Positions 1-61,400 of a stretch of 64,000 nucleotides of DNA are shown one piece after another; position 1 is the first letter of the stretch; each line of letters begins with the position of its first letter. The notes beneath the pieces are model-generated. The model did no database searches. It was not told the origin of the DNA and was given only the letters and a program-made list of their open reading frames with translations. Origin of the DNA: Heptranchias perlo (taxonomy: Eukaryota); NCBI RefSeq assembly GCF_035084215.1, contig NW_027138483.1, forward strand, positions 310,001-374,000, read 5' to 3'. The translations under genes were made by a program, and so were the position numbers.

Positions 1-3000
1 TGGTGCTGGGGTCAAGGATGTCACGGAGCGGCTGCAGGGCATTCTGGAGGGGGAGGGTGAACAGCCAGTCGTCGTGGTCCATATTGGTACCTACGACATA
101 TTTAAAAAAGGGATGGGGTCCTGCAAGGTGAATTTAAGGAGTTAGGAGATAAATTAAAATGCAGGACTTCAAAGGTAGTGATCTCAGGATTACTACCGGT
201 GCCACATTATAGTGAGTATAGGAACATGAGAATAGACAGGATGAATGTGTGGCTGCAGGGATGGTGTAGGAGGGAGGGATTTAGATTCCTGGGACATTGG
301 GACCGCTTCTGGGGAAGGTGGGACCTGTACAAGCATGACGGGTTGAACCCGAGCAGGACCGGGACCAATGTCCTCGCGGGGGTGATGGCTAGTGCTGTTG
401 GAAAGGTTAAAACTAGAGTGGCAGGGGGATGGGAACCTGAGCGGGGAGTCACAAGGGAATGAAGTTGAGAGCAACAAGAGAGGGGAAATCTACAATACAA
501 ATAGTACAAACAGTTGTTCAGGAACAAGTGAAAGGGAAAAGCGTAGAGCAGCAGAAAAAAAGTGTACTCTTGGCACGACAGATAAAATAAAAACAAGGAG
601 GCGTAAGGCGATTAACCCAGCATCAAAGCTGTGGCAGGAGGTTGGGAACCTGAGCAGGGAGACAGAGGAAAGCGTGTCAGGAAGGGACAGAAGGTATGGA
701 GTAAAAGGTAAAGTGTTAAAAAAGGAAAAAGCAGGATCTAAGTCTCACAAAACATAATTGAAAGTTCTTTGTCTGAATGCAAGTCGAATTCGTAACAAAA
801 TGGACGAGTTAGCGGCACAAATATGGGTATGATCACGTGGCCAAAACAGAAACATGGCTGCAGGGTGACAACGACTGGGAATTAAATATGCCAGGGTATT
901 TAACAATCAGGAAGGACAGGCAGGAAGGAAGGGGAGGTGGGGTGGCTATGTTAATAAAGGAAGGAATCACTGTAATACAGAGAAATGATATTGGGACAAA
1001 GGATCAAGATAATGAAAAAATTTGGGTAGAGATAAGGAATAATAAGGGGAAAAAACACTAATGGGCGTAGTATATAGGCCTCCTAATAGTTGCAACTCTG
1101 CTGGAAGAAGTATTAATCAGGAAATAGTCGGGGCATGTAATAAGGGAACAGCTATAATTATGGGGGATTTTAACTATGATATTAACTGGACAAATCAAAT
1201 TGGGCACGGCAGCCTTGAGGAAGAGTTTATTGAATGTATTCGGGATGGATTTCTTGAGCAGTATGTAACTGATCCTACTAGGGGTAAAGCAACCGTCGAC
1301 CTGGTCTTGTGTAATGAGCCAGGATTAATAAATAATGTCACAATTATGGATCCCCTTGAAATGAGTGACCATAACATGGTTACATTCCATATACAATTAG
1401 AGGGTGAGAAGGTTGGTTCCCAAACAAGCGTACTGAGCTTGAATAAAGGAGACTATGATGGTATGAGAGCGGAATTGATTAAAGTGGACTGGGAAAATAG
1501 ATTAAAGGGTAAGACGGTACATGAACAGTAGTGTACATTTAAGGAGTTATTTTACAACTTTCAAAAAATATATATTCCACTGAGGAAAAAAGGGTGTAAA
1601 AGAAATGACAGACATCCGTGGCTAAGTTAAGAAATTAAGGATAGTATCCGACTAAAAACAAGGACATAAAAGGTAGCCAAACCTAGTGGGAGGAGAGAAG
1701 ATTGGGAAGTCTTCAAAAGACAGCAAAAAGTAACTATAGGATTGATTAAGAAAGGAAATATAGATTTTGAAAATAAATTAGCAAAAAATATAAAAACAGA
1801 TAGCAAGAGTTTCTACAGTTATATAAAAAGAAAAAGGGTGGATAAGGTAAACGTAGGTCCCTTCGAGGATGAGACCGGGAAATTAATGGTGGGAAACATG
1901 GAGATGGCAAAAATGCTGAACAAATATTTTGTTTCAGTCTTTATGGTAGAGGACACTAAGAATATCAAAACACTGGACAAACAGGGGACTCTGGGGAGGA
2001 GGAGCTAAATACGATTAAAATCACTAAGGAATTGGTACTCAGTAAATTAATGGGACTCAAGGCGTATAAATCCCCTGAGCCTGATGGCTTACATCCTGGG
2101 GTCTTGAGGGAAGTGGCAGTAGGGATTGTGGATGCTTTGGTAATAATTTTCCAAAATTCTCTGGACTCGGCAAAGGTCCCGGCAGATTGGAAAACTGCGA
2201 ATGTAACACCCTTATTTCAAAAGAGTATTAGGCAGAAGGCTGAAAATTATAGACCAGTTAGCCTAACATCTTTGGTGGGTAAAATTTTGGAGACAGTAGC
2301 AGAACATTTGGATCAACACAATTTAATAGGACAAAGTCAGCATGGCTTTACGAAGGGGAAGTCATGTCTGACAAATTTGCTTGAGTTCTTTGAAAACATA
2401 ACGTACAGGGTGGATGAAGGGGAACCAGTGGACGCAGTGTATTTAGACTTCCAGAAGACATTCGACAAGGTACCACATAAAAGATTATTGCTCAAGATTA
2501 ATAATCACTGGATTGGCGGTAATATTCTGGCATGGGTGGAGGATTGGTTTTCTAACAGGAAGCAGAGAGTAGGGATAAATGGTTCATTCTCGGACTGGCA
2601 ACCAGTAGCCAGTGGTGTTCCGCAGGGGTCGGTGCTGGGCCCCCAACTCTTTACAATTTATTTTAACGATTTGGAGGAGGGGACAGAGTATAATATATCA
2701 AAGTTTACAGATGATACAAAGATGGCAGGGAAAGTGGAGAGTGAGGAGGACATAAAAAACCTACTATGGGATCTCGACAGGCTTGGTGAGTGGGCGGAGA
2801 TTTGGCAGATGCAATACAATATTGGAAAATGTGAGGCAGGAAAAATCAGAGAGAAAGTTATTATCTTAAAGGCAAGAAACTGGAAAGTACTGCAGTTCAA
2901 AGGAATCTGGGATTCATTCCTACTGCAAGAAAATCAAAAAGATAGTATGCAGGTGCAGCAGGTGATCAAGAAGGCCAACGGAATGTTGGCTTTTATTGCT

Positions 3001-3641
3001 CGGGAGATAGAATATAAAAACAGGGAGGTATTGCTGCAGTTATTTAAGGTATTGGTGAGACCGCACCTGGAATACTGCATACAGTTTTGGTCTCCATACT
3101 TAAGAAAATACATACTTGCTCTCGAGGCAGTATAAAGAAGGTTCACTCGGTTAATCCCGGGGATGAGGGGGCGGACATATGAGTAGAGGTTGAGTAGATT
3201 GGGACTCTACTCATTGGAGTTCAGAAGAATGAGAGGCGATCTTATTGAAACATATAAGATTGTGAAGGGGCTTGATCGGGTGGATGCGGTAAGGATGTTC
3301 CCAAGGATGGGTGAAACTAGAACTAGGGGGCATAATCTTTGAATAAGGGGCTGCTCTTTCAAAACTGAGATGAGGAGAAACTTCTTCACTCAGAGGGTAG
3401 TAGGTCTGTGGAATTTGCTGCTCCAGCAAGCTGTGGAAGCGACATCATTAAATAAATTTAAAACATAAATAGACATTTTCCTAGAAGTAAAGGGAATTAG
3501 GGGTTACGGGGAGCGGGCGGGCAATTGGACATAAATTTAGATTTGAGATTAGCATCAGATCAGCCATGAACTTATTGAATGGCGGAGCAGGCTCGAAGGG
3601 CCTACTCCTGCTTCTATTTCTTCTGTCCTTATGTTCTTATG
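1..3641 (+). mobile_element. CR1-clade LINE, largely complete but disabled (end of ORF1 esterase, APE endonuclease, RT, 3' UTR and tail)
   Basis: ORF1 FRFLGHWDRFWGRWDLYKHDGL; endonuclease TETWL, VYRPP, MGDFN, SDHN; RT NYRPVSLTS, QHGF, GVPQGSVLGP, FTDD, RPHLEYC. Several stops and frameshifts. (TTCTTATG)n-like tail at ~3618-3641. Confidence 0.95.
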
Positions 3642-3944
3642 AACATCATTTTTGTCTCTATTAACTCCACTTTCTCTTCCCTGTCGTCCACTGAGGGAGA
3701 GGGGAGTTGGGTGGGGGAGGCAGCTGACAGAGTTTTTTTGAAAATTGTTCAATTTTCTTGTTTGCACTTTTCCAACGTTAAAATCTTGAAATAATTGTGT
3801 AATTTCGTTTTTTATTAACACTTCTGAATTGATGTTAGGATGTCGTGTTTGCACTTTTTCCAATGTTTATATGTGTGAATAATTATTGAGGTTTCGTCTT
3901 TTCACTTTCATAATGATTTTTAAATAAATTATGAAGTTTCACCT

Positions 3945-5985
3945 TTGCGACAGTTTTCTGGAACAATATGTTCTTGAACCAACAACGAAACGGGCCAGAT
4001 TCAGATCAGAGATTAGAAATAAGCTTGAATGAGTCAATAATCTTACGGTAAGGGAACACCTCGCTAACACTGACCTTTATATGATAGAATTCGATATTAG
4101 GCATGAAAATAAGAAAGGTGAGTCACGAACTAAGGTGATCCATTTAGTTAAGGCTGAATTTGGAGAGATGAAGTCGGAATTGAACACAATAGACTGGGCA
4201 AAACTATTAACGGAGAGAACTATGGATGAAAAGTGGAAGGCATTCACAGAAGCATTTGCTCGAATACAAAACCTGTACACCCCCGTCAGGGGCAACAGCT
4301 CTACGTGTGTAATTAAACAATCTTGGTCAGCAAGGGAAGTGAGATATGGAATGAAACTAAAAGTAAGGGCTTACATGAACGCAAAGCACAGTAAACATCC
4401 CGTGGACTGAGAGACATATAAAGAACAGCAAAGGGATACAAGGAAAGAGGTAAGGTTTGCAAAAAGGGAATGCAAGATAAAGCTTGCGAGGGATATCAAG
4501 GAAAACAATAACTGTTTTTACAAATCTATTAAGAGAAAGAGGGTGGCGAGTAGTAACATGGCCCATAATGACAGACGCAGGTGATAATGTAATTGGGAAT
4601 ATCGGATCAACGATACAAGGAAAATGGAAAATAAATCAACGGGAGGAAATTACTAGATCTAATATAAGTTCAAAAATGGTGATGGAGAAACTAATGTGAT
4701 TAAAGATAGACAAATCTCCAGGACCCTACGTATTAAAAGAAGTAGGCGAGGAAATTATTGATGTTCTCGATTCAAGAATTGTCCCCATGGATTGGAAAAC
4801 TGCCAATGCCACTCCATTATTTAAGTCGGGTAGGAGAGATAAATGACGAAATTACAGGCCTATTAATCAAACGTCAGTTGTGGAGCAGTTACTGGAATCT
4901 GGCATTCGGGAAGGAGTGACTGAGGATTTCGACAAATATGAGCGGATCAGAGAGAGACAACGTGGACTTGTAAAAGGTAAGTCATGTCTAACAAACCTAG
5001 CTGAATTTTTGAGGAGGTAACAAATGTGGTACAAAAGGGAGTGAATATGAATGTTATTTATATGGACTTACAGAAGGCATTTGGCAAGGCACAACATAAC
5101 AGACTGTTAACAATAATGAGAGTGCGTGAAATTGTAGTCAATTTATTCGCTGGATAGGGAATTGGATAGATGGTAGGAGGCAGAGATTAGGGACAATGGG
5201 TATGTGCTCAAATTGGCAAGAGATGGCTATTGTTGTCGCCCAGGGATCTGTAATGGAACCTTAGCGTTCCATTATATTTATAAATTACTTCGATGAAGGA
5301 ATAGCAAACCGTATATCTAAGTTTGTTGACGACACTACGTTAGGTGCCACATTAAACAGTGTGGATGGGAGCAGTACGTTGCAAAGGGACATTGATACAT
5401 TAAATGAGTGGGCAAAATGATGGCAGATGGAATTCAGGGTAGGAAAGTGTGAGGTCATCCACTTTGGACCTAAGAAAGAAAGAGCAGAGTATTTTTAACA
5501 TGGCAAGAAGCTAGGAACTGTGGATGAGCATAGAGATTTAGAGGCACACGTACAGAAATCACTTAAAACTAATGGACAAGTACAGATAAAAATAATTAAA
5601 ACGGAGAATGGAATGGTGGCCTTTATCTCAACAGGGCTGCAATACCAAGTGATGCAAGTTATGCTATTGCTCTCGTATAGAGCTCTGGTTAGACCCCATC
5701 TGGAGTATTGCATTCAGTTCAAGGCACTGCACCTCAGGAAGGCTATATTTCTCTTGGAGGCGGCGCAGTGCAGATTCAACAGAATGATAGCGGGACTTAA
5801 AGGGTTAAATTATGAGTACAGGTTATATAGACTAGGCTTGAATTGCCTTGAATATAGAAGATTAAAGTGTGATCTACTTGAGGTGTTTAAGATGATTAAA
5901 GGATTTGAGAGGGTAGGTGGAGAGAAACTATTTCCTCTGGTGGGGGAGTCCAGAAGAAGGCAGCATAACCTTAACATTAGGTTCC
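3945..5985 (+). mobile_element. Degenerate CR1 LINE ORF2 fragment
   Basis: Remnants of LEQYV, KSCLTNL, SKFVDDT, WQMEF and LVRPHLEYCIQF with many frameshifts. Confidence 0.88.
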
Positions 5986-6319
5986 CTTTTCAGGCGGGCT
6001 CCGGGTTCACTTCCAGGCATGTGTTCATTCTCGCTCGATTTTCCAATATGCGCTCTACCCATGTGAAATTTTGTGTCCGAGCGTGGAAGATCAGAGCCTG
6101 CAGCTCAATGAATTATAATTCAATAAATCAGAGGGCTCGGAATGAATGGATGGCTCCTCCAATGAGGCGGCACAGGGTTGATGGGCAAAATGGCTTCCTT
6201 CCGATTTGTAAAATTGAATACATTCGATCGGCCTGGCAGGGAATCAGTGATCAGAGGTAAAGAATGTGACACATGTTTGACCGCAATTTAATTTCATTTT
6301 TGGCCGGAGACTGTTCATA

Positions 6320-6590
6320 AAATCACAGAATCATAGAAACTTACAGCACAGTAGAAGACCCATCATGCCTGTGCCGGCTCGTTGAACGATCTGTCCAATT
6401 AGTCCCACTCCTCTGCTCTTCCTTCAGAGCCCTACATTTTTTTCAAGTATTTATCCAATTTCCTTTTGAGAGTTGTCATTGTATCTTCTTCCACCGCCCT
6501 TTCAGGCAGTGCATTCCAGAAAATAACAACTCCTTGCGTAAAATAAAGCTTTGTATCACCTATCTGGTTCTTTTGCAAATTACTTTAAAG
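6320..6590 (-). mobile_element. CR1 3'-end fragment
   Basis: Starts with tail-like atcacagaatcatagaa; resembles the CR1 3' ends at 17060-17375 and 22915-23150. Confidence 0.7.
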
Positions 6591-6609
6591 ATAAGACTTC
6601 CAGTCCACA

Positions 6610-8600
6610 GTAGCGTCAGCACTTGTGTCACAGTAGTAGGTATAACATCAGTGCGACAAAAGCAGAGTCAGCACTGGGGTACCAACAGTAGCTAGAACTA
6701 CATTGCTGCAAAAGTAGAGTCAGCACTGGTATCACAGCAGTAGGTATAACATCAGTGTGACACTAGTAGAGTGATCACTGGTGTCACAGCAGTAGGTTTA
6801 AATTAGTGCGACACGAGTAGAGTGATCACTAGTGTCACAGCAGTAGGTATAACATCAGTGTGACACGAGCAGATTGATCACTGCTGTCGCAGCAGTAGCT
6901 ATAACATTAGTGTGACACTAATGGAGTGATCAATCGTGTCACAGCAGCCGGTATAACATTCGTGCGACACTAGTGGAATGATCAATCGTGTCACATCAGC
7001 CAGTATAACATTAGTGCGACACTAGTAGAGTGATCAATCGTGTCACAGCAGCAGGTATAATATTAGTGCCACACTAGTCGAGTAATCACTCGTGTACAGC
7101 AGCAGGTATAACGTTAGTGCGACACTAGTAGGTTCATCATTACTGTCGCAGCAGTTGGTATAACATTAGTACGACAATAGTAGAGTGATGACTAGTGTCA
7201 CAGCAGTAGGTATAACATTAGTGCAACACGAGTAGAGTGATCACTGGTATCACAGCAGTAGGTAAAACATCAGTGTGACACTAGCAGATTGATCACTGCT
7301 GTCGCAGCAGTAGATTTAACATTAGTGCGACACGAGTGGAGTGATCAATCGTGTCACATCAGCCGGTATAACATTAGTGCGACACTAATAGATTGATCAA
7401 TCGTGTCACAGCAGCAGGTATAATATTAGTGCGACACTAGTCGAGTAATCACTCGTGTCACAGCAGCAGGTATAACATTAGTGCGACACGAGTACAGTGA
7501 TCACTGGTGTCACAGCAGTAGTTATATCATTAATGCGACACTAGTAGAGTGATCATTGGTGTCACAGCAGTAGGTTTAACATTAGTGCGACACTAGTAGA
7601 GTGATCACTAGTGTCACAGCAGTAGGTATAACATCAGTGTGACACTAGCATATTGATCACTGCTGTCGCAGCAGTAGGTATAACATTAGTGCGACACTAG
7701 TGGAGTGATCAATCGTGTCACATCAGCCGGTATAACATTAGTGCGACACTAGTAGAGTGATCAATCGTGTCACAGCAGCCGGTATAACATTAGTGCGACA
7801 CTGGTAGAGTGATCAATCGTGTCACAGCAGCAGGTATAATATTAGTGCGACACTAGTCGAGTAATCACTAGTGTCACAGCAGTAGGTATAACATTAGTGC
7901 GACACCAGTAGAGTTATCATTGGTGTCACAGCAGTAGGTATAACATTAATGCGACACTAGTAGAGTGATCATTGGTGTCACAGCAATAGGTATAACATTA
8001 GAACGACACTAGTAGAGTTATCACTGGTGTCACAGCAGTAGGTACAACATTAATGCGACACTGGTAGATTGATCATTGGTGTCACAGCAATAGGTATAAC
8101 ATTAGTACGACACTAGTAGAGTTATCACTGGTGTCACAGCAGTAGGTATAACATTAGTGCGACACTAGTAGAGTGATCACTAGTGTCACAGCAATAGGTA
8201 GAACATTAGTACGACACTAGTAGAGTTATCACTGGTGTAACAGCAGTCAGTATAACATTAATGCGACACTGGTAGAGTGATCATTGGTGTCACAGCAGTA
8301 GGTATAACATTAGTACGACACTAGTAGAGTGATCACTGGTGTCACAGCAGTAGGTATAACATTAGTACGACACTAGTGGAGTGATCATTGGTGTAACAGC
8401 AGTAGGTATAACATTAATGCGACACTGGTAGAGTGAGCACTGGTGTCACAGCAGTAGGTATACAACCAGTGCATCAAAAGTAGGGTCAGCCCTGGGGCGC
8501 CAGCAGTAGATATATCACGAGTGCTGCACATGTAGTATCAGCACTGGTTTCAAAGCAGTAGCTATTCCTCCAGTCCTGCAAAAGTAGAGTAAGCACGAGC
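6610..8600. repeat. 52-bp minisatellite (diverged 26+26 dimer), roughly 38 units
   Basis: Consensus gtgcgacactagtagagtgatcactggtgtcacagcagtaggtataacatta; taacatt recurs at 7681 and 7733. Confidence 0.95.
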
Positions 8601-8699
8601 GCCCAGTACTCGGTATATCAGCAGTTCTCCAACTGTAGCCTCATCGCCTGTACCAGAGGGGTTGAGACATCGGCAGTGCAGTAAGTGTAGCGCATCCAA

Positions 8700-10410
8700 G
8701 AGCATTGTAGCAATAGGATCAGCACTTTCGCAGTTAGAGCTTTGTGACCTCTGGTGCAAGTGTAGGGTAGCACAACACGGTCATCTCCAGCGTAAGTGTA
8801 CGGTACAGCTAGTACCAGAGGAGAACAGTCAGCCCTGGTGTGAATATAGAAGTAACACGAGTGCCGGAGGAGCAGGGTCACATCTAGCGTAAGTGTAGGA
8901 TACCACTAGTCCCGGAGCAGCACAGTCACCTCTAATGTAAGTGTAGGATAGCACTAGCACCGGTGGAGCATTTATCACCTCTACTATAATGTAGGGTATC
9001 ACTATTGCCGGTGAAGAACGTTCACCTTCTGTGTAACTTTACTGCATCACTAGTTCTGGAGGAGCACGGACAACTCTCCTGTAAGTCTAGGGTATCACTA
9101 GAGCCGGAGAAAGATCAGCTCTAGTATTACTGTAGGGTACTACTCACAACAGGCGAGAACAGACACCTCCAATGCAAGAGCATTGCACCACGAGTACCGG
9201 AGGAGCGCAGTCACCTCTCGTGTAAGTGCAGGCTACCACTAGTACAGGAGGAGCACAGTCACATCTAGTGTAAGTGCAGGATACCACTAGTATAGGAGGA
9301 GCGCAGCCACACCTAGTGTAAGTGCAGGATACCACTAGTCCAGGAGGAGCGGAGCCACATCTAGTGTAAGTGCAGGCTATCACTAGTACAGGAGGAGCGC
9401 AGCCACATCTAGTGTAAGTGCAAGCTCCCACTAGTATAGGAGGAGCGCAGCCACATCTAGTGTAAGTGCAGGCTATCACTAGTACAGGAGGAGCGCAGCC
9501 ATATCTAGTGTAGGTGCAGGCTATCACTAGTACAGGAGGAGCGCAGCCACATCTAGTGTAAGTGCAGGCTCCCACTAGTACCGGAGGAGCGCAGCCACAT
9601 CTAGTCTAGGTGCAGGCTATCACTAGTACAGGAGGAGCGCAGCCACATCTGGTGTAAGTGCAGGATACCACTAGTACAGGAGGAGCGCAGCCACATCTAG
9701 TGTAAGTGCAGGCTCCCACTAGTACCGGAGGAGCGCAGCCACATCTAGTGTAAGTGCAGGCTATCACTAGTACAGGAGGAGCGCAGCCACATCTAGTGTA
9801 AGTGCAGGCTCCCACTAGTACCGGAGGAGCGCAGCCACATCTAGTGTAAGTGCAGGCTATCACTAGTACAGGAGGAGCGCAGTCACATCTAGTGTAAGTG
9901 CAGGCTCCCACTAGTACCGGAGGAGCGCAGCCACATCTAGTGTAAGTGCAGGCTATCACTAGTACAGGAGGAGCGCAGCCACATCTAGTTTAAGTGCAGG
10001 CTCCCACTCGTACCGGAGGAGCACACTCACATCTAGTGTAAATGTGGGGTACCACCAGTATCGGAGGAGCATGGTCACCTTTAATCTAAATGCATGCTAC
10101 ACTAGTACAGGAGGATCACACTCACATTTACTGTAAATGTGGCGTGCGACCAGTACCGGAGGAGCACGGTCACCTATAATATAAATGCAGGCTGCACTAA
10201 TACAGGAGGCGCACACTCACATCTAGTGTAAGTTTGGGGTACCGCCAGTACCGGAGGAGCACGGTACCTCTATTGGACGTGCAGAGTTACCACTAGAACA
10301 GAGGAACAAGGTCATCCCTAGTGTAATTGTAGCTTTCCACTAATACCGGAGGAAAATGCTCACCTCTAGTTTAAGTCCAGGGGCAGCACTGGTACCGATG
10401 CAGCATGGTC
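8700..10410. repeat. 48-bp minisatellite with a homogeneous core at ~9200-10010 (VNTR)
   Basis: Unit ctagtgtaagtgcaggctatcactagtacaggaggagcgcagccacat at 9361 and 9409; gives 16-aa periodic spurious ORFs. Confidence 0.95.
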
Positions 10411-10411
10411 A

Positions 10412-12836
10412 ACTCGGGAACTATCTGGAACAGTGCGTTTTCAGCCCAACCAGAAAGGAGACGATGCTGGATCTAGTTCTGTGGAATGAAGCGGGGCCGG
10501 TGGAGTGTGTTTCAGTGGGGGAGTATTTAGGCATTAGTGATCATAATATAATTAGGTTGAGAATAGTTATGGTAAAGGACAAGAAACAATCAGGCGTAAA
10601 TATACTTAACTGCAGGAGGTTAATTTCAGTGAGTTAAAAAGGATTCATCCCCAGGTGGATTGGAATCAAAAATTGGCAGAACAGTAAATCAGCAATCATG
10701 TAAGAGTTAGTTCGGGTACAGAGTAGACACATTTTCACGGTGGTGGTGGTGGTGGCGAGGGGGATGGGTGGTGGTGGATGGGGTGGGTCGAAAGAAGGAC
10801 ATCGAAAACTACAGCTCCCTGGATTCCTAAAGATATGCAGATGAAAAGAAACAGAAAAATGAGGCGTATGGCGAATGTAAGGATAATATTGCAGTTGAGA
10901 ACCTGGCTGAATACAGAAAGCACAAAGAAGATCAAAACAAGGGAATAAGAGGGCCAAGGAGAGAGCATGAGAATACATTAGCGGCTAACATAAAAGGGCA
11001 ACCAAAAGTGCTTTATAATCATATAAATGGTGAAGGCTAGTCAAAGGAAGGGTGTGGCCGATTAGGGACAAAAAGGCGATATTCTTGTAGTGGCTGAGGG
11101 CATGGTTGAGGAACGAAATGGACAATTCGCATCCGTCTTCAATGGAGAAGAGGATGCTGCCATTGTAGCAGTAAATGTTGGGGGGGCGCGGGGGGAGGGG
11201 GTTAGTAGCGATATTGGATGCGATAAAAATAGACAAAGGGGAGATCCTTAAATGATTGGCACTCAAAGTAGAAAAGTCACCCGGTCCAGATGGGATGCAT
11301 CCTGGGTTTTGAAGGGAAGTGAGGGTGGAAATTGCGACGTGTCTGGGCAAAATCATCCAATCCTCCTTAAATATGGGGATGCTGCCGGAGGACCGGACGA
11401 TTGTGAATGTTACACCCCCGTTTACAAAGGGGAGAGGGCTAATCCCGTCATTTACAGGCAAGTCAGCCTAACGTTGGTGGTGGGGAATGTTTTAGCGTCA
11501 ATAACCCGGGACAAAATGAATTAGAGCTTGGAAAATGTTGGGCTAATAAATGAAAGTCATCACGGATTTACAATAGCTAAATCGCGTTTGATTAAATTGA
11601 ATGAGTTCTTTCATGAAATAACGGAGATAGTTGATGAGGGTTGTGCGTTTGATGTTGTGTGCTGGACTTTTAAAAAGCACCTGGAAAATATAACATTATC
11701 GAATTGTTAGCAAAATTGAAGCCCGTGGGATTACAGGAACAGTGGCAGCACGGATGCAACATTGGCAAGGGGACAGAAAGCAGAGAATAGTGGTGAATGG
11801 TTACTTTCAGACTGGAGGGACGTGAACAGTGGTGTTCCCCAGGGGTCGGTATTAGGATCACTGCTCATTTTGATATATATTAATGGCCTAGTCTTGAGTA
11901 TAGAGTACATAATTTCTAAGTTTGCAGATGACACAAAACTCGGAAATGTAGGAAACAATGTGGAGGATAGGAACAGACTTCAGAAGGAAATAGACAGACT
12001 GGTGAACTGCACAGAAACATGGCAAATGGTATTTGAAGCAGAGAAGTGTGGAGTGATACATTTTGGTAGGAAGAAGGAGGAGAGGGAATATATACTAAAT
12101 GGCACTATTTGATTGAGGGTGCAGGAACAGAGAGACCTGGGGTTGCACATATATCAAGCTTCATGATGGCAGGACAAGTTGAGAAGGCAGTTTAAAAAGT
12201 AAATGGGACGCTCGGCTTTATTAATAGAGACATAGCGTAAAAAAGCAAGGAAGTTATGGTAAACATTAATAAAACGTTCGTTAAGCCTCAGCTGGAGTAT
12301 TGTGTCCAATTCTGGGCACCACAATTTAGGAAGGATATCTCGGCCTTCGAGAGGGTACAGAAGAGATTTACTAGAATTGTACCAGGGATGAGGGACTTCA
12401 GTTATGTGGAGAGATTGGAGAAGCTGGGGTTATTCTCCGTGGAGCAGAGAAAATGAAGGGGAGATTTGATAGCGGTGTTCAAAATCATGAACGGTTTTGA
12501 TAGATTAAAGAAGGAGCAAATCTTTCCAGTGGTAGAAGGGTCGGTAGCCAGAAGGTGATCGGCAAAAGAGGCAGAAGCAGCATGAGGAATCATTTTCTTA
12601 CCCAGTGAGTTGTTATGATCTGGGATTCACTGCCTGAAAGGGTGGTGGAAGCAAGTTCAATAGTAACATTCAAAAGGGAATTGGAAAAATACTTGAAGTG
12701 GAAAATTACATTGCTCTGGTGAAAGAGCAGTGAAATGGGACCAATTGGGTAGCCCTTTCGGAGAGATGGCATACGTACGATGGACAGAATGAAATCATCC
12801 TTTACAGTACCTACCATGATAATATCATACTGTGAT
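10412..12836 (+). mobile_element. 5'-truncated degenerate CR1 LINE inserted in the 48-bp satellite
   Basis: LDLVL, SDHN, YRQVSLT, GVPQGSVLG, SKFADDTK, PQLEYCVQFWAP and a 3' UTR; satellite units on both sides. Confidence 0.9.
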
Positions 12837-13960: not shown

Positions 13961-14302
13961 CGCTCAGGTCTAATGCTGCAAGACTGCGGTCATCTCCAAC
14001 ATTGCAGGATTAGTTTCCGCAACTGCACTGAGAGAGTTGGGGCACTCGGTGTGAGTCAAATGCAGCGTCAGCGTGATTACTTCAAAGGTAGCTGCCTCCA
14101 CCAGTCATGTAGTTATCGGGTCAGGACCGTTACTGGGAGATTCCACTTTCCATTTGTAAAGAATGTTTTAATTGTGTAATTTCTTAAAATGTCCAATAAC
14201 CGTTTCAACTATTTCTCTGAATTCAATGCCTCAGACCAAAAAATCAACTTCTCTGAGTCTATTTGTTAAATGACTGTAACTAATGCTAGTTATGGTGCAA
14301 CA

Positions 14303-14337
14303 TGATTGACTCCCTGGACGATTGATGTGTGTATAAA
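14303..14337 (+). promoter_or_regulatory. Putative core promoter of gene A (TATAAA 14332-14337 and a conserved TGATTGACTCCCTGG block)
   Basis: TATAAA starts 88 bp before the ATG, the same spacing as in paralog B. Confidence 0.55.
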
Positions 14338-50727: not shown

Positions 50728-50728
50728 T

Positions 50729-52295
50729 GACCATGCTGCATCGGTACCAGTGCTGCCCCTGGACTTAAACTAGAGGTGAGCATTTTCCTCCGGTATTAGT
50801 GGAAAGCTACAATTACACTAGGGATGACCTTGTTCCTCTGTTCTAGTGGTAACTCTGCACGTCCAATAGAGGTACCGTGCTCCTCCGGTACTGGCGGTAC
50901 CCCAAACTTACACTAGATGTGAGTGTGCGCCTCCTGTATTAGTGCAGCCTGCATTTATATTATAGGTGACCGTGCTCCTCCGGTACTGGTCGCACGCCAC
51001 ATTTACAGTAAATGTGAGTGTGATCCTCCTGTACTAGTGTAGCATGCATTTAGATTAAAGGTGACCATGCTCCTCCGATACTGGTGGTACCCCACATTTA
51101 CACTAGATGTGAGTGTGCTCCTCCGGTACGAGTGGGAGCCTGCACTTAAACTAGATGTGGCTGCGCTCCTCCTGTACTAGTGATAGCCTGCACTTACACT
51201 AGATGTGGCTGCGCTCCTCCGGTACTAGTGGGAGCCTGCACTTACACTAGATGTGACTGCGCTCCTCCTGTACTAGTGATAGCCTGCACTTACACTAGAT
51301 GTGGCTGCGCTCCTCCGGTACTAGTGGGAGCCTGCACTTACACTAGATGTGGCTGCGCTCCTCCTGTACTAGTGGTATCCTGCACTTACACCAGATGTGG
51401 CTGCGCTCCTCCTGTACTAGTGATAGCCTGCACCTACACTAGATGTGGCTGCGCTCCTCCGGTACTAGTGGGAGCCTGCACTTACACTAGATGTGGCTGC
51501 GCTCCTCCTGTACTAGTGATAGCCTGCACCTACACTAGATATGGCTGCGCTCCTCCTGTACTAGTGATAGCCTGCACTTACACTAGATGTGGCTGCGCTC
51601 CTCCTATACTAGTGGGAGCTTGCACTTACACTAGATGTGGCTGCGCTCCTCCTGGACTAGTGGTATCCTGCACTTACACTAGGTGTGGCTGCGCTCCTCC
51701 TATACTGGTGGTATCCTGCACTTACACTAGATGTGACTGTGCTCCTCCTGTACTAGTGGTAGCCTGCACTTACACGAGAGGTGACTGCGCTCCTCCGGTA
51801 CTCGTGGTGCAATGCTCTTGCATTGGAGGTGTCTGTTCTCGCCTGTTGTTAGTAGTACCCTACAGTAATACTAGAGCTGATCTTTCTCCGGCTCTAGTGA
51901 TACCCTAGACTTACAGGAGAGTTGTCCGTGCTCCTCCAGAACTAGTGATGCAGTAAAGTTACACAGAAGGTGAACGTTCTTCACCGGCAATAGTGATACC
52001 CTACATTATAGTAGAGGTGATAAATGCTCCACCGGTGCTAGTGCTATCCTACACTTACATTAGAGGTGACTGTGCTGCTCCGGGACTAGTGGTATCCTAC
52101 ACTTACGCTAGATGTGACCCTGCTCCTCCGGCACTCGTGTTACTTCTATATTCACACCAGGGCTGACTGTTCTCCTCTGGTACTAGCTGTACCGTACACT
52201 TACGCTGGAGATGACCGTGTTGTGCTACCCTACACTTGCACCAGAGGTCACAAAGCTCTAACTGCGAAAGTGCTGATCCTATTGCTACAATGCTC
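50729..52295. repeat. 48-bp minisatellite (mirror copy, 3 units shorter)
   Basis: 13 units versus 16 on the left arm over the span of ORF 51180-51908. Confidence 0.95.
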
Positions 52296-52394
52296 TTGGA
52301 TGCGCTACACTTACTGCACTGCCGATGTCTCAACCCCTCTGGTACAGGCGATGAGGCTACAGTTGGAGAACTGCTGATATACCGAGTACTGGGC

Positions 52395-54385
52395 GCTCGT
52401 GCTTACTCTACTTTTGCAGGACTGGAGGAATAGCTACTGCTTTGAAACCAGTGCTGATACTACATGTGCAGCACTCGTGATATATCTACTGCTGGCGCAC
52501 CAGGGCTGACCCTACTTTTGATGCACTGGTTGTATACCTACTGCTGTGACACCAGTGCTCACTCTACCAGTGTCGCATTAATGTTATACCTACTGCTGTT
52601 ACACCAATGATCACTCCACTAGTGTCGTACTAATGTTATACCTACTGCTGTGACACCAGTGATCACTCTACTAGTGTCGTACTAATGTTATACCTACTGC
52701 TGTGACACCAATGATCACTCTACCAGTGTCGCATTAATGTTATACTGACTGCTGTTACACCAGTGATAACTCTACTAGTGTCGTACTAATGTTCTACCTA
52801 TTGCTGTGACACTAGTGATCACTCTACTAGTGTCGCACTAATGTTATACCTACTGCTGTGACACCAGTGATAACTCTACTAGTGTCGTACTAATGTTATA
52901 CCTATTGCTGTGACACCAATGATCAATCTACCAGTGTCGCATTAATGTTGTACCTACTGCTGTGACACCAGTGATAACTCTACTAGTGTGGTTCTAATGT
53001 TATACCTATTGCTGTGACACCAATGATCACTCTACTAGTGTCGCATTAATGTTATACCTACTGCTGTGACACCAATGATAACTCTACTGGTGTCGCACTA
53101 ATGTTATACCTACTGCTGTGACACTAGTGATTACTCGACTAGTGTCGCACTAATATTATACCTGCTGCTGTGACACGATTGATCACTCTACCAGTGTCGC
53201 ACTAATGTTATACCGGCTGCTGTGACACGATTGATCACTCTACTAGTGTCTCACTAATGTTATACCGGCTGATGTGACACGATTGATCACTCCACTAGTG
53301 TCGCACTAATGTTATACCTACTGCTGCGACAGCAGTGATCAATATGCTAGTGTCACACTGATGTTATACCTACTGCTGTGACACTAGTGATCACTCTACT
53401 AGTGTCGCACTAATGTTAAACCTACTGCTGTGACACCAATGATCACTCTACTAGTGTCGCATTAATGATATAACTACTGCTGTGACACCAGTGATCACTG
53501 TACTCGTGTCGCACTAATGTTATACCTGCTGCTGTGACACGAGTGATTACTCGACTAGTGTCGCACTAATATTATACCTGCTGCTGTGACACGATTGATC
53601 AATCTATTAGTGTCGCACTAATGTTATACCGGCTGATGTGACACGATTGATCACTCCACTCGTGTCGCACTAATGTTAAATCTACTGCTGCGACAGCAGT
53701 GATCAATCTGCTAGTGTCACACTGATGTTTTACCTACTGCTGTGATACCAGTGATCACTCTACTCGTGTTGCACTAATGTTATACCTACTGCTGTGACAC
53801 TAGTCATCACTCTACTATTGTCGTACTAATGTTATACCAACTGCTGCGACAGTAATGATGAACCTACTAGTGTCGCACTAACGTTATACCTGCTGCTGTA
53901 CACGAGTGATTACTCGACTAGTGTGGCACTAATATTATACCTGCTGCTGTGACACGATTGATCACTCTACTAGTGTCGCACTAATGTTATACTGGCTGAT
54001 GTGACACGATTGATCATTCCACTAGTGTCGCACGAATGTTATACCGGCTGCTGTGACACGATTGATCACTCCATTAGTGTCACACTAATGTTATAGCTAC
54101 TGCTGCGACAGCAGTGATCAATCTGCTCGTGTCACACTGATGTTATACCTACTGCTGTGACACTAGTGATCACTCTACTCGTGTCGCACTAATTTAAACC
54201 TACTGCTGTGACACCAGTGATCACTCTACTAGTGTCACACTGATGTTATACCTACTGCTGTGATACCAGTGCTGACTCTACTTTTGCAGCAATGTAGTTC
54301 TAGCTACTGTTGGTACCCCAGTGCTGACTCTGCTTTTGTCGCACTGATGTTATACCTACTACTGTGACACAAGTGCTGACGCTGC
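52395..54385. repeat. 52-bp minisatellite (mirror copy)
   Basis: Reverse complement of 6610-8600. Confidence 0.95.
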
Positions 54386-55009
54386 TGTGGACTGGAAGTC
54401 TTATCTTTAAAGTAATTTGCAAAAGAACCAGATAGGTGATACAAAGCTTTATTTTACGCAAGGAGTTGTTATTTTCTGGAATGCACTGCCTGAAAGGGCG
54501 GTGGAAGAAGATACAATGACAACTCTCAAAAGGAAATTGGATAAATACTTGAAAAAAATGTAGGGCTCTGAAGGAAGAGCAGAGGAGTGGGACTAATTGG
54601 ACAGATCGTTCAACGAGCCGGCACAGGCATGATGGGTCTTCTACTGTGCTGTAAGTTTCTATGATTCTGTGATTTTATGAACAGTCTCCGGCCAAAAATG
54701 AAATTAAATTGCGGTCAAACATGTGTCACATTCTTTACCTCTGATCACTGATTCCCTGCCAGGCCGATCGAATGTATTCAATTTTACAAATCGGAAGGAA
54801 GCCATTTTGCCCATCAACCCTGTGCCGCCTCATTGGAGGAGCCATCCATTCATTCCGAGCCCTCTGATTTATTGAATTATAATTCATTGAGCTGCAGGCT
54901 CTGATCTTCCACGCTCGGACACAAAATATCACATGGGTAGAGCGCATATTGGAAAATCGAGCGAGAATGAACACATGCCTGGAAGTGAACCCGGAGCCCG
55001 CCTGAAAAG

Positions 55010-57050
55010 GGAACCTAATGTTAAGGTTATGCTGCCTTCTTCTGGACTCCCCCACCAGAGGAAATAGTTTCTCTCTACCTACCCTCTCAAATCCTTTAAT
55101 CATCTTAAACACCTCAAGTAGATCACACTTTAATCTTCTATATTCAAGGCAATTCAAGCCTAGTCTATATAACCTGTACTCATAATTTAACCCTTTAAGT
55201 CCCGCTATCATTCTGTTGAATCTGCACTGCGCCGCCTCCAAGAGAAATATAGCCTTCCTGAGGTGCAGTGCCTTGAACTGAATGCAATACTCCAGATGGG
55301 GTCTAACCAGAGCTCTATACGAGAGCAATAGCATAATTTGCATCACTTGGTATTGCAGCCCTGTTGAGATAAAGGCCACCATTCCATTCTCCGTTTTAAT
55401 TATTTTTATCTGTACTTGTCCATTAGTTTTAAGTGATTTCTGTACGTGTGCCTCTAAATCTCTATGCTCATCCACAGTTCCTAGCTTCTTGCCATGTTAA
55501 AAATACTCTGCTCTTTCTTTCTTAGGTCCAAAGTGGATGACCTCACACTTTCCTACCCTGAATTCCATCTGCCATCATTTTGCCCACTCATTTAATGTAT
55601 CAATGTCCCTTTGCAACGTACTGCTCCCATCCACACTGTTTAATGTGGCACCTAACGTAGTGTCGTCAACAAACTTAGATATACGGTTTGCTATTCCTTC
55701 ATCGAAGTAATTTATAAATATAATGGAACGCTAAGGTTCCATTACAGATCCCTGGGCGACAACAATAGCCATCTCTTGCCAATTTGAGCACATACCCATT
55801 GTCCCTAATCTCTGCCTCCTACCATCTATCCAATTCCCTATCCAGCGAATAAATTGACTACAATTTCACGCACTCTCATTATTGTTAACAGTCTGTTATG
55901 TTGTGCCTTGCCAAATGCCTTCTGTAAGTCCATATAAATAACATTCATATTCACTCCCTTTTGTACCACATTTGTTACCTCCTCAAAAATTCAGCTAGGT
56001 TTGTTAGACATGACTTACCTTTTACAAGTCCACGTTGTCTCTCTCTGATCCGCTCATATTTGTCGAAATCCTCAGTCACTCCTTCCCGAATGCCAGATTC
56101 CAGTAACTGCTCCACAACTGACGTTTGATTAATAGGCCTGTAATTTCGTCATTTATCTCTCCTACCCGACTTAAATAATGGAGTGGCATTGGCAGTTTTC
56201 CAATCCATGGGGACAATTCTTGAATCGAGAACATCAATAATTTCCTCGCCTACTTCTTTTAATACGTAGGGTCCTGGAGATTTGTCTATCTTTAATCACA
56301 TTAGTTTCTCCATCACCATTTTTGAACTTATATTAGATCTAGTAATTTCCTCCCGTTGATTTATTTTCCATTTTCCTTGTATCGTTGATCCGATATTCCC
56401 AATTACATTATCACCTGCGTCTGTCATTATGGGCCATGTTACTACTCGCCACCCTCTTTCTCTTAATAGATTTGTAAAAACAGTTATTGTTTTCCTTGAT
56501 ATCCCTCGCAAGCTTTATCTTGCATTCCCTTTTTGCAAACCTTACCTCTTTCCTTGTATCCCTTTGCTGTTCTTTATATGTCTCTCAGTCCACGGGATGT
56601 TTACTGTGCTTTGCGTTCATGTAAGCCCTTACTTTTAGTTTCATTCCATATCTCACTTCCCTTGCTGACCAAGATTGTTTAATTACACACGTAGAGCTGT
56701 TGCCCCTGACGGGGGTGTACAGGTTTTGTATTCGAGCAAATGCTTCTGTGAATGCCTTCCACTTTTCATCCATAGTTCTCTCCGTTAATAGTTTTGCCCA
56801 GTCTATTGTGTTCAATTCCGACTTCATCTCTCCAAATTCAGCCTTAACTAAATGGATCACCTTAGTTCGTGACTCACCTTTCTTATTTTCATGCCTAATA
56901 TCGAATTCTATCATATAAAGGTCAGTGTTAGCGAGGTGTTCCCTTACCGTAAGATTATTGACTCATTCAAGCTTATTTCTAATCTCTGATCTGAATCTGG
57001 CCCGTTTCGTTGTTGGTTCAAGAACATATTGTTCCAGAAAACTGTCGCAA
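55010..57050 (-). mobile_element. Degenerate CR1 ORF2 fragment (mirror copy)
   Basis: Reverse complement of 3945-5985. Confidence 0.88.
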
Positions 57051-57353
57051 AGGTGAAACTTCATAATTTATTTAAAAATCATTATGAAAGTGAAAAGACG
57101 AAACCTCAATAATTATTCACACATATAAACATTGGAAAAAGTGCAAACACGACATCCTAACATCAATTCAGAAGTGTTAATAAAAAACGAAATTACACAA
57201 TTATTTCAAGATTTTAACGTTGGAAAAGTGCAAACAAGAAAATTGAACAATTTTCAAAAAAACTCTGTCAGCTGCCTCCCCCACCCAACTCCCCTCTCCC
57301 TCAGTGGACGACAGGGAAGAGAAAGTGGAGTTAATAGAGACAAAAATGATGTT

Positions 57354-60300
57354 CATAAGAACATAAGGACAGAAGAAATAGAAGCAGGAGTAGGCCCTTC
57401 GAGCCTGCTCCGCCATTCAATAAGTTCATGGCTGATCTGATGCTAATCTCAAATCTAAATTTATGTCCAATTGCCCGCCCGCTCCCCGTAACCCCTAATT
57501 CCCTTTACTTCTAGGAAAATGTCTATTTATGTTTTAAATTTATTTAATGATGTCGCTTCCACAGCTTGCTGGAGCAGCAAATTCCACAGACCTACTACCC
57601 TCTGAGTGAAGAAGTTTCTCCTCATCTCAGTTTTGAAAGAGCAGCCCCTTATTCAAAGATTATGCCCCCTAGTTCTAGTTTCACCCATCCTTGGGAACAT
57701 CCTTACCGCATCCACCCGATCAAGCCCCTTCACAATCTTATATGTTTCAATAAGATCGCCTCTCATTCTTCTGAACTCCAATGAGTAGAGTCCCAATCTA
57801 CTCAACCTCTACTCATATGTCCGCCCCCTCATCCCCGGGATTAACCGAGTGAACCTTCTTTATACTGCCTCGAGAGCAAGTATGTATTTTCTTAAGTATG
57901 GAGACCAAAACTGTATGCAGTATTCCAGGTGCGGTCTCACCAATACCTTAAATAACTGCAGCAATACCTCCCTGTTTTTATATTCTATCTCCCGAGCAAT
58001 AAAAGCCAACATTCCGTTGGCCTTCTTGATCACCTGCTGCACCTGCATACTATCTTTTTGATTTTCTTGCAGTAGGAATGAATCCCAGATTCCTTTGAAC
58101 TGCAGTACTTTCCAGTTTCTTGCCTTTAAGATAATAACTTTCTCTCTGATTTTTCCTGCCTCACATTTTCCAATATTGTATTGCATCTGCCAAATCTCCG
58201 CCCACTCACCAAGCCTGTCGAGATCCCATAGTAGGTTTTTTATGTCCTCCTCACTCTCCACTTTCCCTGCCATCTTTGTATCATCTGTAAACTTTGATAT
58301 ATTATACTCTGTCCCCTCCTCCAAATCGTTAAAATAAATTGTAAAGAGTTGGGGGCCCAGCACCGACCCCTGCGGAACACCACTGGCTACTGGTTGCCAG
58401 TCCGAGAATGAACCATTTATCCCTACTCTCTGCTTCCTGTTAGAAAACCAATCCTCCACCCATGCCAGAATATTACCGCCAATCCAGTGATTATTAATCT
58501 TGAGCAATAATCTTTTATGTGGTACCTTGTCGAATGTCTTCTGGAAGTCTAAATACACTGCGTCCACTGGTTCCCCTTCATCCACCCTGTACGTTATGTT
58601 TTCAAAGAACTCAAGCAAATTTGTCAGACATGACTTCCCCTTCGTAAAGCCATGCTGACTTTGTCCTATTAAATTGTGTTGATCCAAATGTTCTGCTACT
58701 GTCTCCAAAATTTTACCCACCAAAGATGTTAGGCTAACTGGTCTATAATTTTCAGCCTTCTGCCTAATACTCTTTTGAAATAAGGGTGTTACATTCGCAG
58801 TTTTCCAATCTGCCGGGACCTTTGCCGAGTCCAGAGAATTTTGGAAAATTATTACCAAAGCATCCACAATCCCTACTGCCACTTCCCTCAAGACCCCAGG
58901 ATGTAAGCCATCAGGCTCAGGGGATTTATACGCCTTGAGTCCCATTAATTTACTGAGTACCAATTCCTTAGTGATTTTAATCGTATTTAGCTCCTCCTCC
59001 CCAGAGTCCCCTGTTTGTCCAGTGTTTTGATATTCTTAGTGTCCTCTACCATAAAGACTGAAACAAAATATTTGTTCAGCATTTTTGCCATCTCCATGTT
59101 TCCCACCATTAATTTCCCGGTCTCATCCTCGAAGGGACCTACGTTTACCTTATCCACCCTTTTTCTTTTTATATAACTGTAGAAACTCTTGCTATCTGTT
59201 TTTATATTTTTTGCTAATTTATTTTCAAAATCTATATTTCCTTTCTTAATCAATCCTATAGTTACTTTTTGCTGTCTTTTGAAGACTTCCCAATCTTCTC
59301 TCCTCCCACTAGGTTTGGCTACCTTTTATGTCCTTGTTTTTAGTCGGATACTATCCTTAATTTCTTAACTTAGCCACGGATGTCTGTCATTTCTTTTACA
59401 CCCTTTTTTCCTCAGTGGAATATATATTTTTTGAAAGTTGTAAAATAACTCCTTAAATGTACACTACTGTTCATGTACCGTCTTACCCTTTAATCTATTT
59501 TCCCAGTCCACTTTAATCAATTCCGCTCTCATACCATCATAGTCTCCTTTATTCAAGCTCAGTACGCTTGTTTGGGAACCAACCTTCTCACCCTCTAATT
59601 GTATATGGAATGTAACCATGTTATGGTCACTCATTTCAAGGGGATCCATAATTGTGACATTATTTATTAATCCTGGCTCATTACACAAGACCAGGTCGAC
59701 GGTTGCTTTACCCCTAGTAGGATCAGTTACATACTGCTCAAGAAATCCATCCCGAATACATTCAATAAACTCTTCCTCAAGGCTGCCGTGCCCAATTTGA
59801 TTTGTCCAGTTAATATCATAGTTAAAATCCCCCATAATTATAGCTGTTCCCTTATTACATGCCCCGACTATTTCCTGATTAATACTTCTTCCAGCAGAGT
59901 TGCAACTATTAGGAGGCCTATATACTACGCCCATTAGTGTTTTTTCCCCTTATTATTCCTTATCTCTACCCAAATTTTTTCATTATCTTGATCCTTTGTC
60001 CCAATATCATTTCTCTGTATTACAGTGATTCCTTCCTTTATTAACATAGCCACCCCACCTCCCCTTCCTTCCTGCCTGTCCTTCCTGATTGTTAAATACC
60101 CTGGCATATTTAATTCCCAGTCGTTGTCACCCTGCAGCCATGTTTCTGTTTTGGCCACATGATCATACCCATATTTGTGCCGCTAACTCGTCCATTTTGT
60201 TACGAATTCGACTTGCATTCAGACAAAGAACTTTCAATTATGTTTTGTGAGACTTAGATCCTGCTTTTTCCTTTTTTAACACTTTACCTTTTACTCCATA

Positions 60301-61400
60301 CCTTCTGTCCCTTCCTGACACGCTTTCCTCTGTCTCCCTGCTCAGGTTCCCAACCTCCTGCCACAGCTTTGATGCTGGGTTAATCGCCTTACGCCTCCTT
60401 GTTTTTATTTTATCTGTCGTGCCAAGAGTACACTTTTTTTCTGCTGCTCTACGCTTTTCCCTTTCACTTGTTCCTGAACAACTGTTTGTACTATTTGTAT
60501 TGTAGATTTCCCCTCTCTTGTTGCTCTCAACTTCATTCCCTTGTGACTCCCCGCTCAGGTTCCCATCCCCCTGCCACTCTAGTTTTAACCTTTCCAACAG
60601 CACTAGCCATCACCCCCGCGAGGACATTGGTCCCGGTCCTGCTCGGGTTCAACCAGTCATGCTTGTACAGGTCCCACCTTCCCCAGAAGCGGTCCCAATG
60701 TCCCAGGAATCTAAATCCCTCCCTCCTACACCATCCCTGCAGCCACACATTCATCCTGTCTATTCTCATGTTCCTATACTCACTATAATGTGGCACCGGT
60801 AGTAATCCTGAGATCACTACCTTTGAAGTCCTGCATTTTAATTTATCTCCTAACTCCTTAAATTCACCTTGCAGGACCCCATCCCTTTTTTAAATATGTC
60901 GTAGGTACCAATATGGACCACGACGACTGGCTGTTCACCCTCCCCCTCCAGAATGCCCTGCAGCCGCTCCGTGACATCCTTGACCCCAGCACCAGGGAGG
61001 CAACATACCATCCTGGAGTCACGTTTGGGGCCGCAGAAACGCCTATCTGTTCCCCTTACAATTGAATCCTCCATCACTATAGCCCTGCCACTCTTCTTCC
61101 TCCCCTCCTGTGCAGCAGAGCCACCCGTGGTGCCACGAACGTGGCTCTTGCTGCTTTTCCCTGATAAGCCATCTCCCCCAACAGTATCTAAAGCAGAATA
61201 TCTGTTTGAGAGGGAGATGGCCCCTGGAGACTCCTGCTCTACCTGCCTTGTCCTTGTACTCTGCCTGGCGGTCACCCATTTACTTTCTGCCTGCGTAGTC
61301 CTTACCTGCGGTGTGACCACCTCACTGAACGTGCTATCCACGATAGTCTCAACATCGCGGATGCTCCACAGTGAATCCACCCGCAGCTCCAGCTCCTACT
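57354..61400 (-). mobile_element. CR1 LINE with most of ORF1 (SGNH esterase-like) and ORF2, disabled, apparently 5'-truncated near 61400
   Basis: ORF 60850-61380 has SNRYSAL, AIVMEDSIVRG, VCCLPGAGVKD and VVVHIGT; ORF2 motifs as in 1-3641. Confidence 0.95.

Follow-up and report, generated by a model that had tools for sequence, protein, structure and literature searches.

A stretch of 64,000 nucleotides (nt) from the cartilaginous fish Heptranchias perlo (RefSeq assembly GCF_035084215.1, contig NW_027138483.1, positions 310,001 to 374,000; hereafter the window, numbered from its first letter) carries a palindrome whose arms, of at least 28 kb each, hold two copies of each of two G protein-coupled receptor (GPCR) genes, A and B, around a single-copy spacer of 4,854 bp. 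The anatomy of the two inner junctions, one native and the other new, makes it probable that this is a real inverted duplication of the fold-back type, young in evolutionary terms and lodged inside a cluster of shark orphan GPCR genes that turns over rapidly by birth and death.

Two near-identical arms around a single-copy spacer

The window contains no N in its 64,000 nt. We found the arms by self-BLAST and compared them by global MAFFT alignment. Positions 1-28142 pair, inverted, with 60994-32997, which gives arm lengths of 28,142 bp (left) and 27,998 bp (right), and a match of 28 kb at 99.9% is far above chance expectation. Neither outer arm end is in the window: position 1 falls inside a long interspersed nuclear element (LINE), and the mirror copy of this LINE runs on past 60994 without a break. 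The parts of the palindrome are as follows (ORF1, open reading frame 1 of a LINE; LTR, long terminal repeat).

1..28142, plus strand: left arm; its inner end is the non-native junction; putative derived copy
28141..28143, no strand: new junction between the 3' flank of gene B and a LINE whose ORF1 breaks off a few codons short of its end
28143..32996, no strand: single-copy spacer of 4,854 bp; gene search negative (no receptor hit by tblastn, no Rfam match)
28143..29650, minus strand: remnants of decayed non-LTR retroelements (an ORF1 end, part of a reverse transcriptase and a second stretch of ORF1), from blastn, tblastn and minus-strand translation
32194..32996, minus strand: native 3' flank of gene B within the spacer, paralogous to the gene A flank at 15917-16757
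32997..60994, minus strand: right arm, reverse complement of the left; runs on into the native 3' flank of gene B; putative native copy
60995..64000, no strand: unpaired segment, whose partner would precede position 1; a LINE ORF1 runs across 60994

Outside a 48-bp minisatellite the arms differ by 27 substitutions (15 transitions and 12 transversions) in 27,068 aligned columns, with no indels. Inside it, a unit-aware alignment adds 2 substitutions, and the right arm lacks 48 bp (~9341-9388) and 96 bp (~9669-9764) of the left-arm array. Overall this amounts to 29 substitutions in 27,998 columns, or 99.90% identity, plus the two minisatellite indels. A first-pass annotation of the window, made from its letters alone, had described reverse-complementary arms of at least 28 kb around a 4.85-kb spacer, with about 25 single-nucleotide polymorphisms (SNPs), identity near 99.9% and a 144-bp difference in a variable-number tandem repeat. 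Self-BLAST confirms that geometry, the five positions it cited (340, 14869, 14950, 15114 and 26733) are all among the 29 of the full count, and the 144-bp difference is real and resolves into the 48 and 96 bp given above. The global alignment had placed 38 mismatches inside the minisatellite; these are a slip of register, and comparison unit by unit leaves 2. Sequencing error was also ruled out as the origin of the arm differences, which comprise substitutions and whole-unit minisatellite changes and no small indels. Four of the 29 differences fall within 317 bp at gene A (14798-15114); three of these lie in coding sequence and each is non-synonymous, and the coding sequence of gene B has none.

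One native and one new junction

Both inner junctions are sharp to the base, without a gap. On the right, the flank of gene B passes from the arm into the spacer: 32194-32996 aligns with the gene A flank 15917-16757 at 77% identity by blastn (83% over 785 ungapped columns), and this alignment, read from 32996 to 32194, is unbroken at the right-arm boundary. On the left, the new junction was aligned against the gene A flank and against a 70%-identical LINE copy at 60594-61067; homology to the latter starts at 28141, so that about 2 bp of microhomology can be inferred. Since the native junction is on the right and the new one on the left, we infer from this sequence pattern that the right arm with the spacer is ancestral and that the left arm is the derived copy. 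A LINE insertion was considered as the maker of the left junction and rejected: the element ends inside ORF1, and the gene B flank never resumes beyond it. Retrotransposed LINEs are typically 5'-truncated, and a cut inside ORF1 does not match that ending.

Decayed inverted homology was not found within the spacer, beyond an AT-rich, imperfect hairpin of 34 bp (~31624-31657) that scores 38 against 26-34 across 10 shuffles. The spacer also holds a tandem array of six 38-bp copies at 30042-30273.

A single-copy spacer between a direct and an inverted copy, with one native and one new junction, is the arrangement of fold-back duplications. In the accessible text of the report on such duplications in humans (Hermetz et al. 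2014, PMC3907307), spacers span 766-70,466 bp with a median of 3,428 bp, and 2 bp is the commonest microhomology (7 of 13); the spacer of 4,854 bp lies within that range. The human cases thus resemble ours in a spacer of a few kb, in the pairing of a native with a new junction and, putatively, in the ~2 bp of inverted microhomology. As described there, however, they are de novo events beside terminal deletions with identical arms, whereas the Heptranchias palindrome stands in reference-type sequence, in a multigene cluster, and its arms have diverged by 0.1%. Large inverted duplications in multigene clusters are already a known kind. The inverted duplication proposed in the first-pass annotation is therefore upheld by the junction anatomy, which taken alone is no proof of a palindrome, because a heterozygous inversion of the spacer mis-walked by the assembler gives the same picture.

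Four receptor genes in the arms

14420..15731, plus strand: GPCR gene A-left; exon 1 14420-14489, exon 2 14815-15731; 328 residues; Pfam 7tm_1 69.2 bits; identical to family protein P0139 over 302 residues
26525..27962, plus strand: GPCR gene B-left; exon 1 26525-26594, exon 2 27043-27962; 329 residues; Pfam 7tm_1 71.4 bits
33177..34614, minus strand: GPCR gene B-right; exon 1 34614-34545, exon 2 34096-33177; same protein as B-left
45408..46719, minus strand: GPCR gene A-right; exon 1 46719-46650, exon 2 46324-45408; identical to XP_067833188.1/XP_067833190.1

Each gene has two exons, the first of 70 bp, and a GT-AG intron, and all four reading frames are open. The claim of four intact GPCR genes consequently stands, although the single long reading frames seen at first start in the intron and overlook the 70-bp first exon. 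The second exons of A and B cover positions 2-260 of the 260 of the Pfam 7tm_1 profile, with 69.2 and 71.4 bits against a cut-off of 30.5, and so identify A and B as predicted rhodopsin-family GPCR genes. The gene B protein is identical over its 329 residues to XP_067833185.1/XP_067833186.1. A-right differs from A-left by C42F, N69S and E124K, that is, all 3 coding differences between the arms alter the protein. A and B themselves share 257 of 328 residues, with a synonymous divergence (dS) of ~0.19, a ratio of non-synonymous to synonymous divergence (dN/dS) of ~0.6 and many changes between transmembrane helices 4 and 5 (TM4 and TM5). They go back to an older tandem duplication, since both have in common the minisatellite and promoter region upstream, the intron and the 3' flank.

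No further GPCR pseudogenes were detected in the window besides the four genes, nor any structured RNA (0 Rfam matches at the gathering score). The RefSeq models of gene B carry a 79-residue N-terminal extension derived from the upstream minisatellite (25442-25675; P0001, P0122), and other models of the family have LINE-derived N-termini (P0002); both kinds are probably annotation artefacts.

The receptor family and its further copies

Of 2,507 candidates in a family search with exon 2 of gene B, 1,609 matched at E <= 1e-10. All of the best 120 of these 1,609 come from sharks, 25 of them being Heptranchias perlo clusters. Proteins of this species are identical to A and B, which bears out the cartilaginous-fish origin guessed from the letters. 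Looking up 17 of the 25 clusters gave at least 85 distinct Heptranchias perlo proteins.

RefSeq names the A and B proteins 'probable GPR139'. Human GPR139 (PDB 7VUG and related entries) is indeed the best of 19 PDB matches and the origin of the name, at 29.7 bits (E 3.8e-6), a small margin over the motilin receptor at 27.6 bits. We regard the name as an automatic one and A and B as not being GPR139 orthologues, judged by this score and by the many-copy shark clades. GPR139 is a single gene in humans, against the at least 85 'probable GPR139' proteins of Heptranchias perlo. The feature neighbours of A and B comprise chordate clusters likewise named 'probable GPR139' and invertebrate clusters resembling FMRFamide receptors. 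A quick tree of 149 rows sets both genes inside a 36-row clade made up solely of Heptranchias perlo (SH-aLRT, an approximate likelihood-ratio support, 92) and leaves the orthologous foreign cluster open. Species-specific clades of the family occur also in horn shark, catsharks and sawshark (among relatives numbered P0001-P0219).

The clusters of OR, TAAR and V1R genes, rhodopsin-family chemosensory receptors that evolve by birth and death, offer a close comparison. The A/B family is like them in its species-specific paralogue clades and mosaic copies, and likewise in its short N-terminus, nearly single-exon coding region and dN/dS of ~0.6; unlike them, it is nearest in sequence to the branch of GPR139/GPR142 and of receptors resembling those for FMRFamide and sex peptide. 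Our literature search, outside which most subscription journals fell, found no paper on an expansion of 'probable GPR139' receptors in sharks.

The accessions identical to B and to A-right all lie on a single sequence of 1,541,017 bp, which holds further copies outside the window. One of these, XP_067833181.1 (P0001), is B minus four residues of the second helix and otherwise identical; another, XP_067833182.1 (P0140), is A at 98.8-99.1% identity and has a histidine in place of a TM7 tyrosine that is present in 214 of 214 other family proteins. Both extra copies are possibly undergoing decay, to go by these protein changes. A third gene, C, has two accessions for one protein (XP_067833183.1/XP_067833189.1) on the same sequence and was not found within the window, where its best match is 66%.

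Two accessions are recorded for 11 of the 85 proteins: 3 on the 1.54-Mb sequence, 5 with both on another single sequence, and 3 split between a 4.35-Mb and a 4.15-Mb sequence, all counts being upper bounds, as pairs may be transcript variants and cross-sequence pairs may be haplotype duplicates. The three split proteins (P0132, P0170 and P0171) are identical between the sequences of 4,347,460 bp and 4,146,100 bp, which resemble each other in gene content; a larger amplicon would account for them, and so would the retention of both haplotypes in the assembly. Recent duplication is evidently the rule in this family in Heptranchias perlo, as far as the sequences speak to it.

The accessions on the 1.54-Mb sequence run B', A', C, B, B, A, C, A, an order that is symmetric about the B pair if A-left is counted and that presumes accession order to follow position. 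The window might then be the centre of a far larger compound amplicon of alternating inverted units, an idea we hold to be doubtful.

Age of the arms

The epaulette shark mutates at 7 x 10^-10 per base per generation (95% confidence interval 1.4-14.1 x 10^-10) and has a nucleotide diversity of 0.002, according to the accessible text of PMC10587355. At that rate the arm difference, computed with 30 differences, corresponds to ~7.7 x 10^5 generations (3.8 x 10^5 to 3.8 x 10^6). Two alleles of the epaulette shark differ more than the arms do, so that arm identity by itself cannot separate a young duplication from an old, converted one or from an allelic mis-join. The 'very recent' duplication that had been proposed calls for caution: at the epaulette-shark rate the arm difference corresponds to some 7-8 x 10^5 generations, or to plain allelic difference.

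Possible exchange among copies and continuing conversion

We consider unlikely, though more probable than the other rivals, an old palindrome or multi-arm amplicon, probably autosomal, whose arms are held near-identical by continuing arm-to-arm conversion through a mechanism like that of the X and Y. Part of its support, which serves the fold-back reading as well, comes from the A copies. The derived F42 is common to A-right and XP_067833182.1 only, and the derived L303 to A-left and A-right only (among 146 fetched proteins, C42 is found in 139 and F303 in 143). With the outgroup all four gametes are present, so conversion, recombination or recurrent change is needed. Exchange among at least three A copies is thereby indicated at the protein level, and not exchange between the arms specifically. 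Incompatible site pairs occur in all five paralogue groups tested (22/36, 10/55, 9/171 and 6/496, and 1/561 in the A group). The strongest sign of shuffling is in the P0064 cluster, ten paralogues of 92-99% identity on a sequence of 8,228,298 bp, to which the 22 of 36 incompatible informative pairs belong. Also in keeping with maintenance by conversion are the mosaic make-up of these groups, the abrupt inner boundary together with the scarcity of SNPs close to the spacer, an age of arms already at ~7-8 x 10^5 generations at 7 x 10^-10 per generation, and the two accessions of gene C on the 1.54-Mb sequence, which imply that the arms may be much longer.

The distribution of SNPs is less telling. 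Unbiased tests of their spacing are not significant (Kolmogorov-Smirnov p = 0.08, largest gap p = 0.14, dispersion p = 0.24), and the two largest gaps together give p = 0.03; a gradient towards the spacer would follow either from conversion near the loop or from allelic crossing-over in the outer arm. Other copies in the window supply an outgroup for 17 of the 27 SNPs and place derived alleles on both arms, too thin a sample for a test of bias.

Against continuing conversion stands the base composition, since the guanine plus cytosine (GC) content of the arms, 43.1 and 43.0%, is not above the 44.0% of the spacer (one palindrome, low power), unlike in ape palindromes, and the paralogous flanks in arm and spacer give a direction of 58:46 (p = 0.28, a weak test). 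The spacer is without decayed inverted homology, and no retroelement insertion is specific to one arm. Nor do the protein changes look like purification by conversion: besides the 3 of 3 non-synonymous coding differences, the A copies depart from conserved positions at L303 (F in 213 of 214 others), F42 (C in 205 of 214) and, in the first helix, R21 (G in 141 of 214), and the outside copy XP_067833182.1 does so at H296 (Y in 214 of 214). In sequence the pattern resembles a relaxation of constraint following duplication; gene B, too, deviates at 2 conserved columns, so that the contrast between A and B in conservation is not strong. Long-term arm-to-arm conversion as the means of arm maintenance is not shown, and of the earlier proposal of conversion-maintained arms what survives is some exchange that involves three or more A copies, does not single out the two arms and goes without GC enrichment.

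A possible assembly artefact

It is quite improbable that the arms are two alleles of one locus, differing by a heterozygous inversion of the 4.85-kb spacer, and that the assembly graph was walked across the haplotypes backwards. Such a mis-join would produce divergence at the level of alleles with minisatellite length differences, and equally the pattern of one native and one new junction; a heterozygous inversion would itself yield reads over 28142/28143 while the palindrome was still false. The source sequence is only 1.54 Mb long, the family lies mostly on short sequences, and the three proteins identical between the 4.35-Mb and 4.15-Mb sequences are perhaps haplotype duplicates. Yet there is no N at either junction, hence no scaffolding join, and from the SNP at 26733 to its mirror at 34406 is only 7.7 kb, which should fit, to go by usual read lengths, into one long accurate read and so be resolvable for assemblers. 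The extra A and B copies on the 1.54-Mb sequence are needed regardless. Fold-back read chimeras yield identical arms without a spacer, contrary to the arms seen here, which differ and have one. On balance the palindrome is probably present on one molecule.

The possibility of sex linkage

It is highly unlikely that the palindrome is an amplicon preserving multicopy genes on the X or Y or in some other region without recombination. The definition of large palindromes in the accessible text of Makova et al. 2024 (PMC11168930) asks for arms of at least 8 kb with at least 98% identity, a spacer of at most 500 kb and less than 80% repeats. The Heptranchias palindrome has arms above 8 kb, 99.90% identity and a 4,854-bp spacer, and thereby fits the geometry of ape sex-chromosome palindromes; a crude mask built from the window only assigns about 74% of its left arm to LINE pieces and tandem arrays, a figure that could exceed 80% with a proper library. 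Palindromes of the ape X and Y are alike in arms above 8 kb, identity above 98%, a short spacer and genes in both arms. Their arms are GC-richer than their spacers (accessible text of PMC11168930 and of Jackson et al. 2021, PMC8981503), whereas ours are without GC enrichment and consist of repeats for about three-quarters, and the genes in our arms, unlike theirs, belong to a large receptor family with more than two near-identical copies.

In conversion-maintained X/Y amplicons the genes of the arms show testis-biased expression.

The X chromosomes of non-myliobatiform elasmobranchs measure 16.4-28.8 Mb, and short unplaced shark sequences can be Y-derived (accessible text of bioRxiv 2025.02.26.637739). 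Two more distant family members lie on sequences of 17.4 Mb (P0110) and 24.7 Mb (P0211), within the X range. The closest foreign relatives, however, whose orthology the tree leaves open, are on chromosomes of 226 Mb (Scyliorhinus canicula), 215 Mb (Heterodontus francisci) and 376 Mb (S. torazame), and the family is scattered over many sequences. The words palindrome and amplicon are absent from the main text of the shark sex-chromosome papers checked, as far as their accessible text goes, and our literature search, outside which most subscription journals fell, found no paper on shark palindromes. The analogy with X/Y amplicons drawn at first finds no support: the arms are not GC-enriched, the closest relatives in other sharks sit on chromosomes of 215-376 Mb, which is indirect evidence, and the family is rich in near-identical duplicates across Heptranchias perlo.

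Points against a fold-back duplication

Several observations weigh against a fold-back duplication as we read it. The 2-bp microhomology depends on a LINE relative that is only 70% identical, and 134 of 1,000 simulated random junctions have at least as much. A heterozygous inversion of the spacer predicts the identical junction asymmetry, and an arm divergence of 0.1% is below the epaulette-shark diversity of 0.002, as it would be for two alleles. Only 2 of 27 SNPs fall in the inner 8.4 kb near the spacer (p = 0.003, with the boundary chosen afterwards), a shortage that the unbiased tests given above do not find significant. The signal of conversion in the A copies is one protein-level site pair, which reversion or recurrent change could explain, and one protein with two accessions may reflect transcript variants of a single gene.

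Repeats in the arms

1..6550, plus strand: two decayed LINEs with endonuclease and reverse-transcriptase pieces (Pfam Exo_endo_phos_2 and RVT_1; tblastn map)
6609..8638, plus strand: 52-bp tandem array; mirror 52357-54386
9187..10260, plus strand: 48-bp minisatellite; mirror 50834-51808, short by one unit and then by two units
~10420-12835: third decayed LINE (Pfam and tblastn map)
12836..13975, plus strand: 47-48-bp minisatellite, ending ~450 bp upstream of gene A; mirror ~47164-48303
17900..25280, minus strand: nested decayed LINEs between genes A and B
21642-22644: 26-bp tandem array
25286..26100, plus strand: related 49-bp minisatellite, ending ~430 bp upstream of gene B; mirror ~35039-35853

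One minisatellite family of 47-49 bp thus lies ~430-450 bp upstream of the start codons of both receptors. The arrays at 8776-10415 and 12836-13975 may be one array split by the LINE at 10420-12835, for which no clear target-site duplication was found; this element and those at 1..6550 we take to be CR1-like. Tandem arrays with a period of 26 bp or 51-52 bp recur three times (6609-8638, 21642-22644 and 62337-62451). LINE pieces are sorted by strand, plus at 1-12835 upstream of gene A and minus at 17900-25280 between A and B, and this grouping explains the mirror-image GC skew of the window.

Discussion

Returning to the fold-back duplication that we favour, its course can be proposed as follows. 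An older tandem duplication would have produced genes A and B. A break or a stalled fork ~4.85 kb downstream of gene B, within an old LINE, may then have been followed by fold-back or template switching at ~2 bp of inverted microhomology, with at least 28 kb copied backwards to form the left arm; a longer palindrome that lost one side of its centre would be another route to the same anatomy. The spacer would keep the palindrome stable, and mutation, together with exchange involving alleles and nearby copies of the duplicated unit, would since have given the arms their ~0.1% of differences. So understood, the duplication would be a copy-number step in the birth-and-death evolution of a receptor family and not a protective sex-chromosome amplicon.

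The palindrome is then a clean example of an inverted segmental duplication whose birth junction can still be read, one that would catch a large family of shark GPCRs in the act of a single duplication, and its importance is modest. It also illustrates that, with the slow mutation rate of sharks, an identity of 99.9% need imply neither a very recent origin nor gene conversion. The receptor family is a more promising lead than the structure of the palindrome: if expressed in sensory organs, the 'probable GPR139' genes of sharks would be a candidate receptor repertoire. Should the doubtful compound amplicon prove true, self-converting inverted arrays would expand and shuffle a set of elasmobranch receptors that numbers about a hundred genes or more in each species, and a further chemosensory family may possibly stand behind the name 'probable GPR139'.

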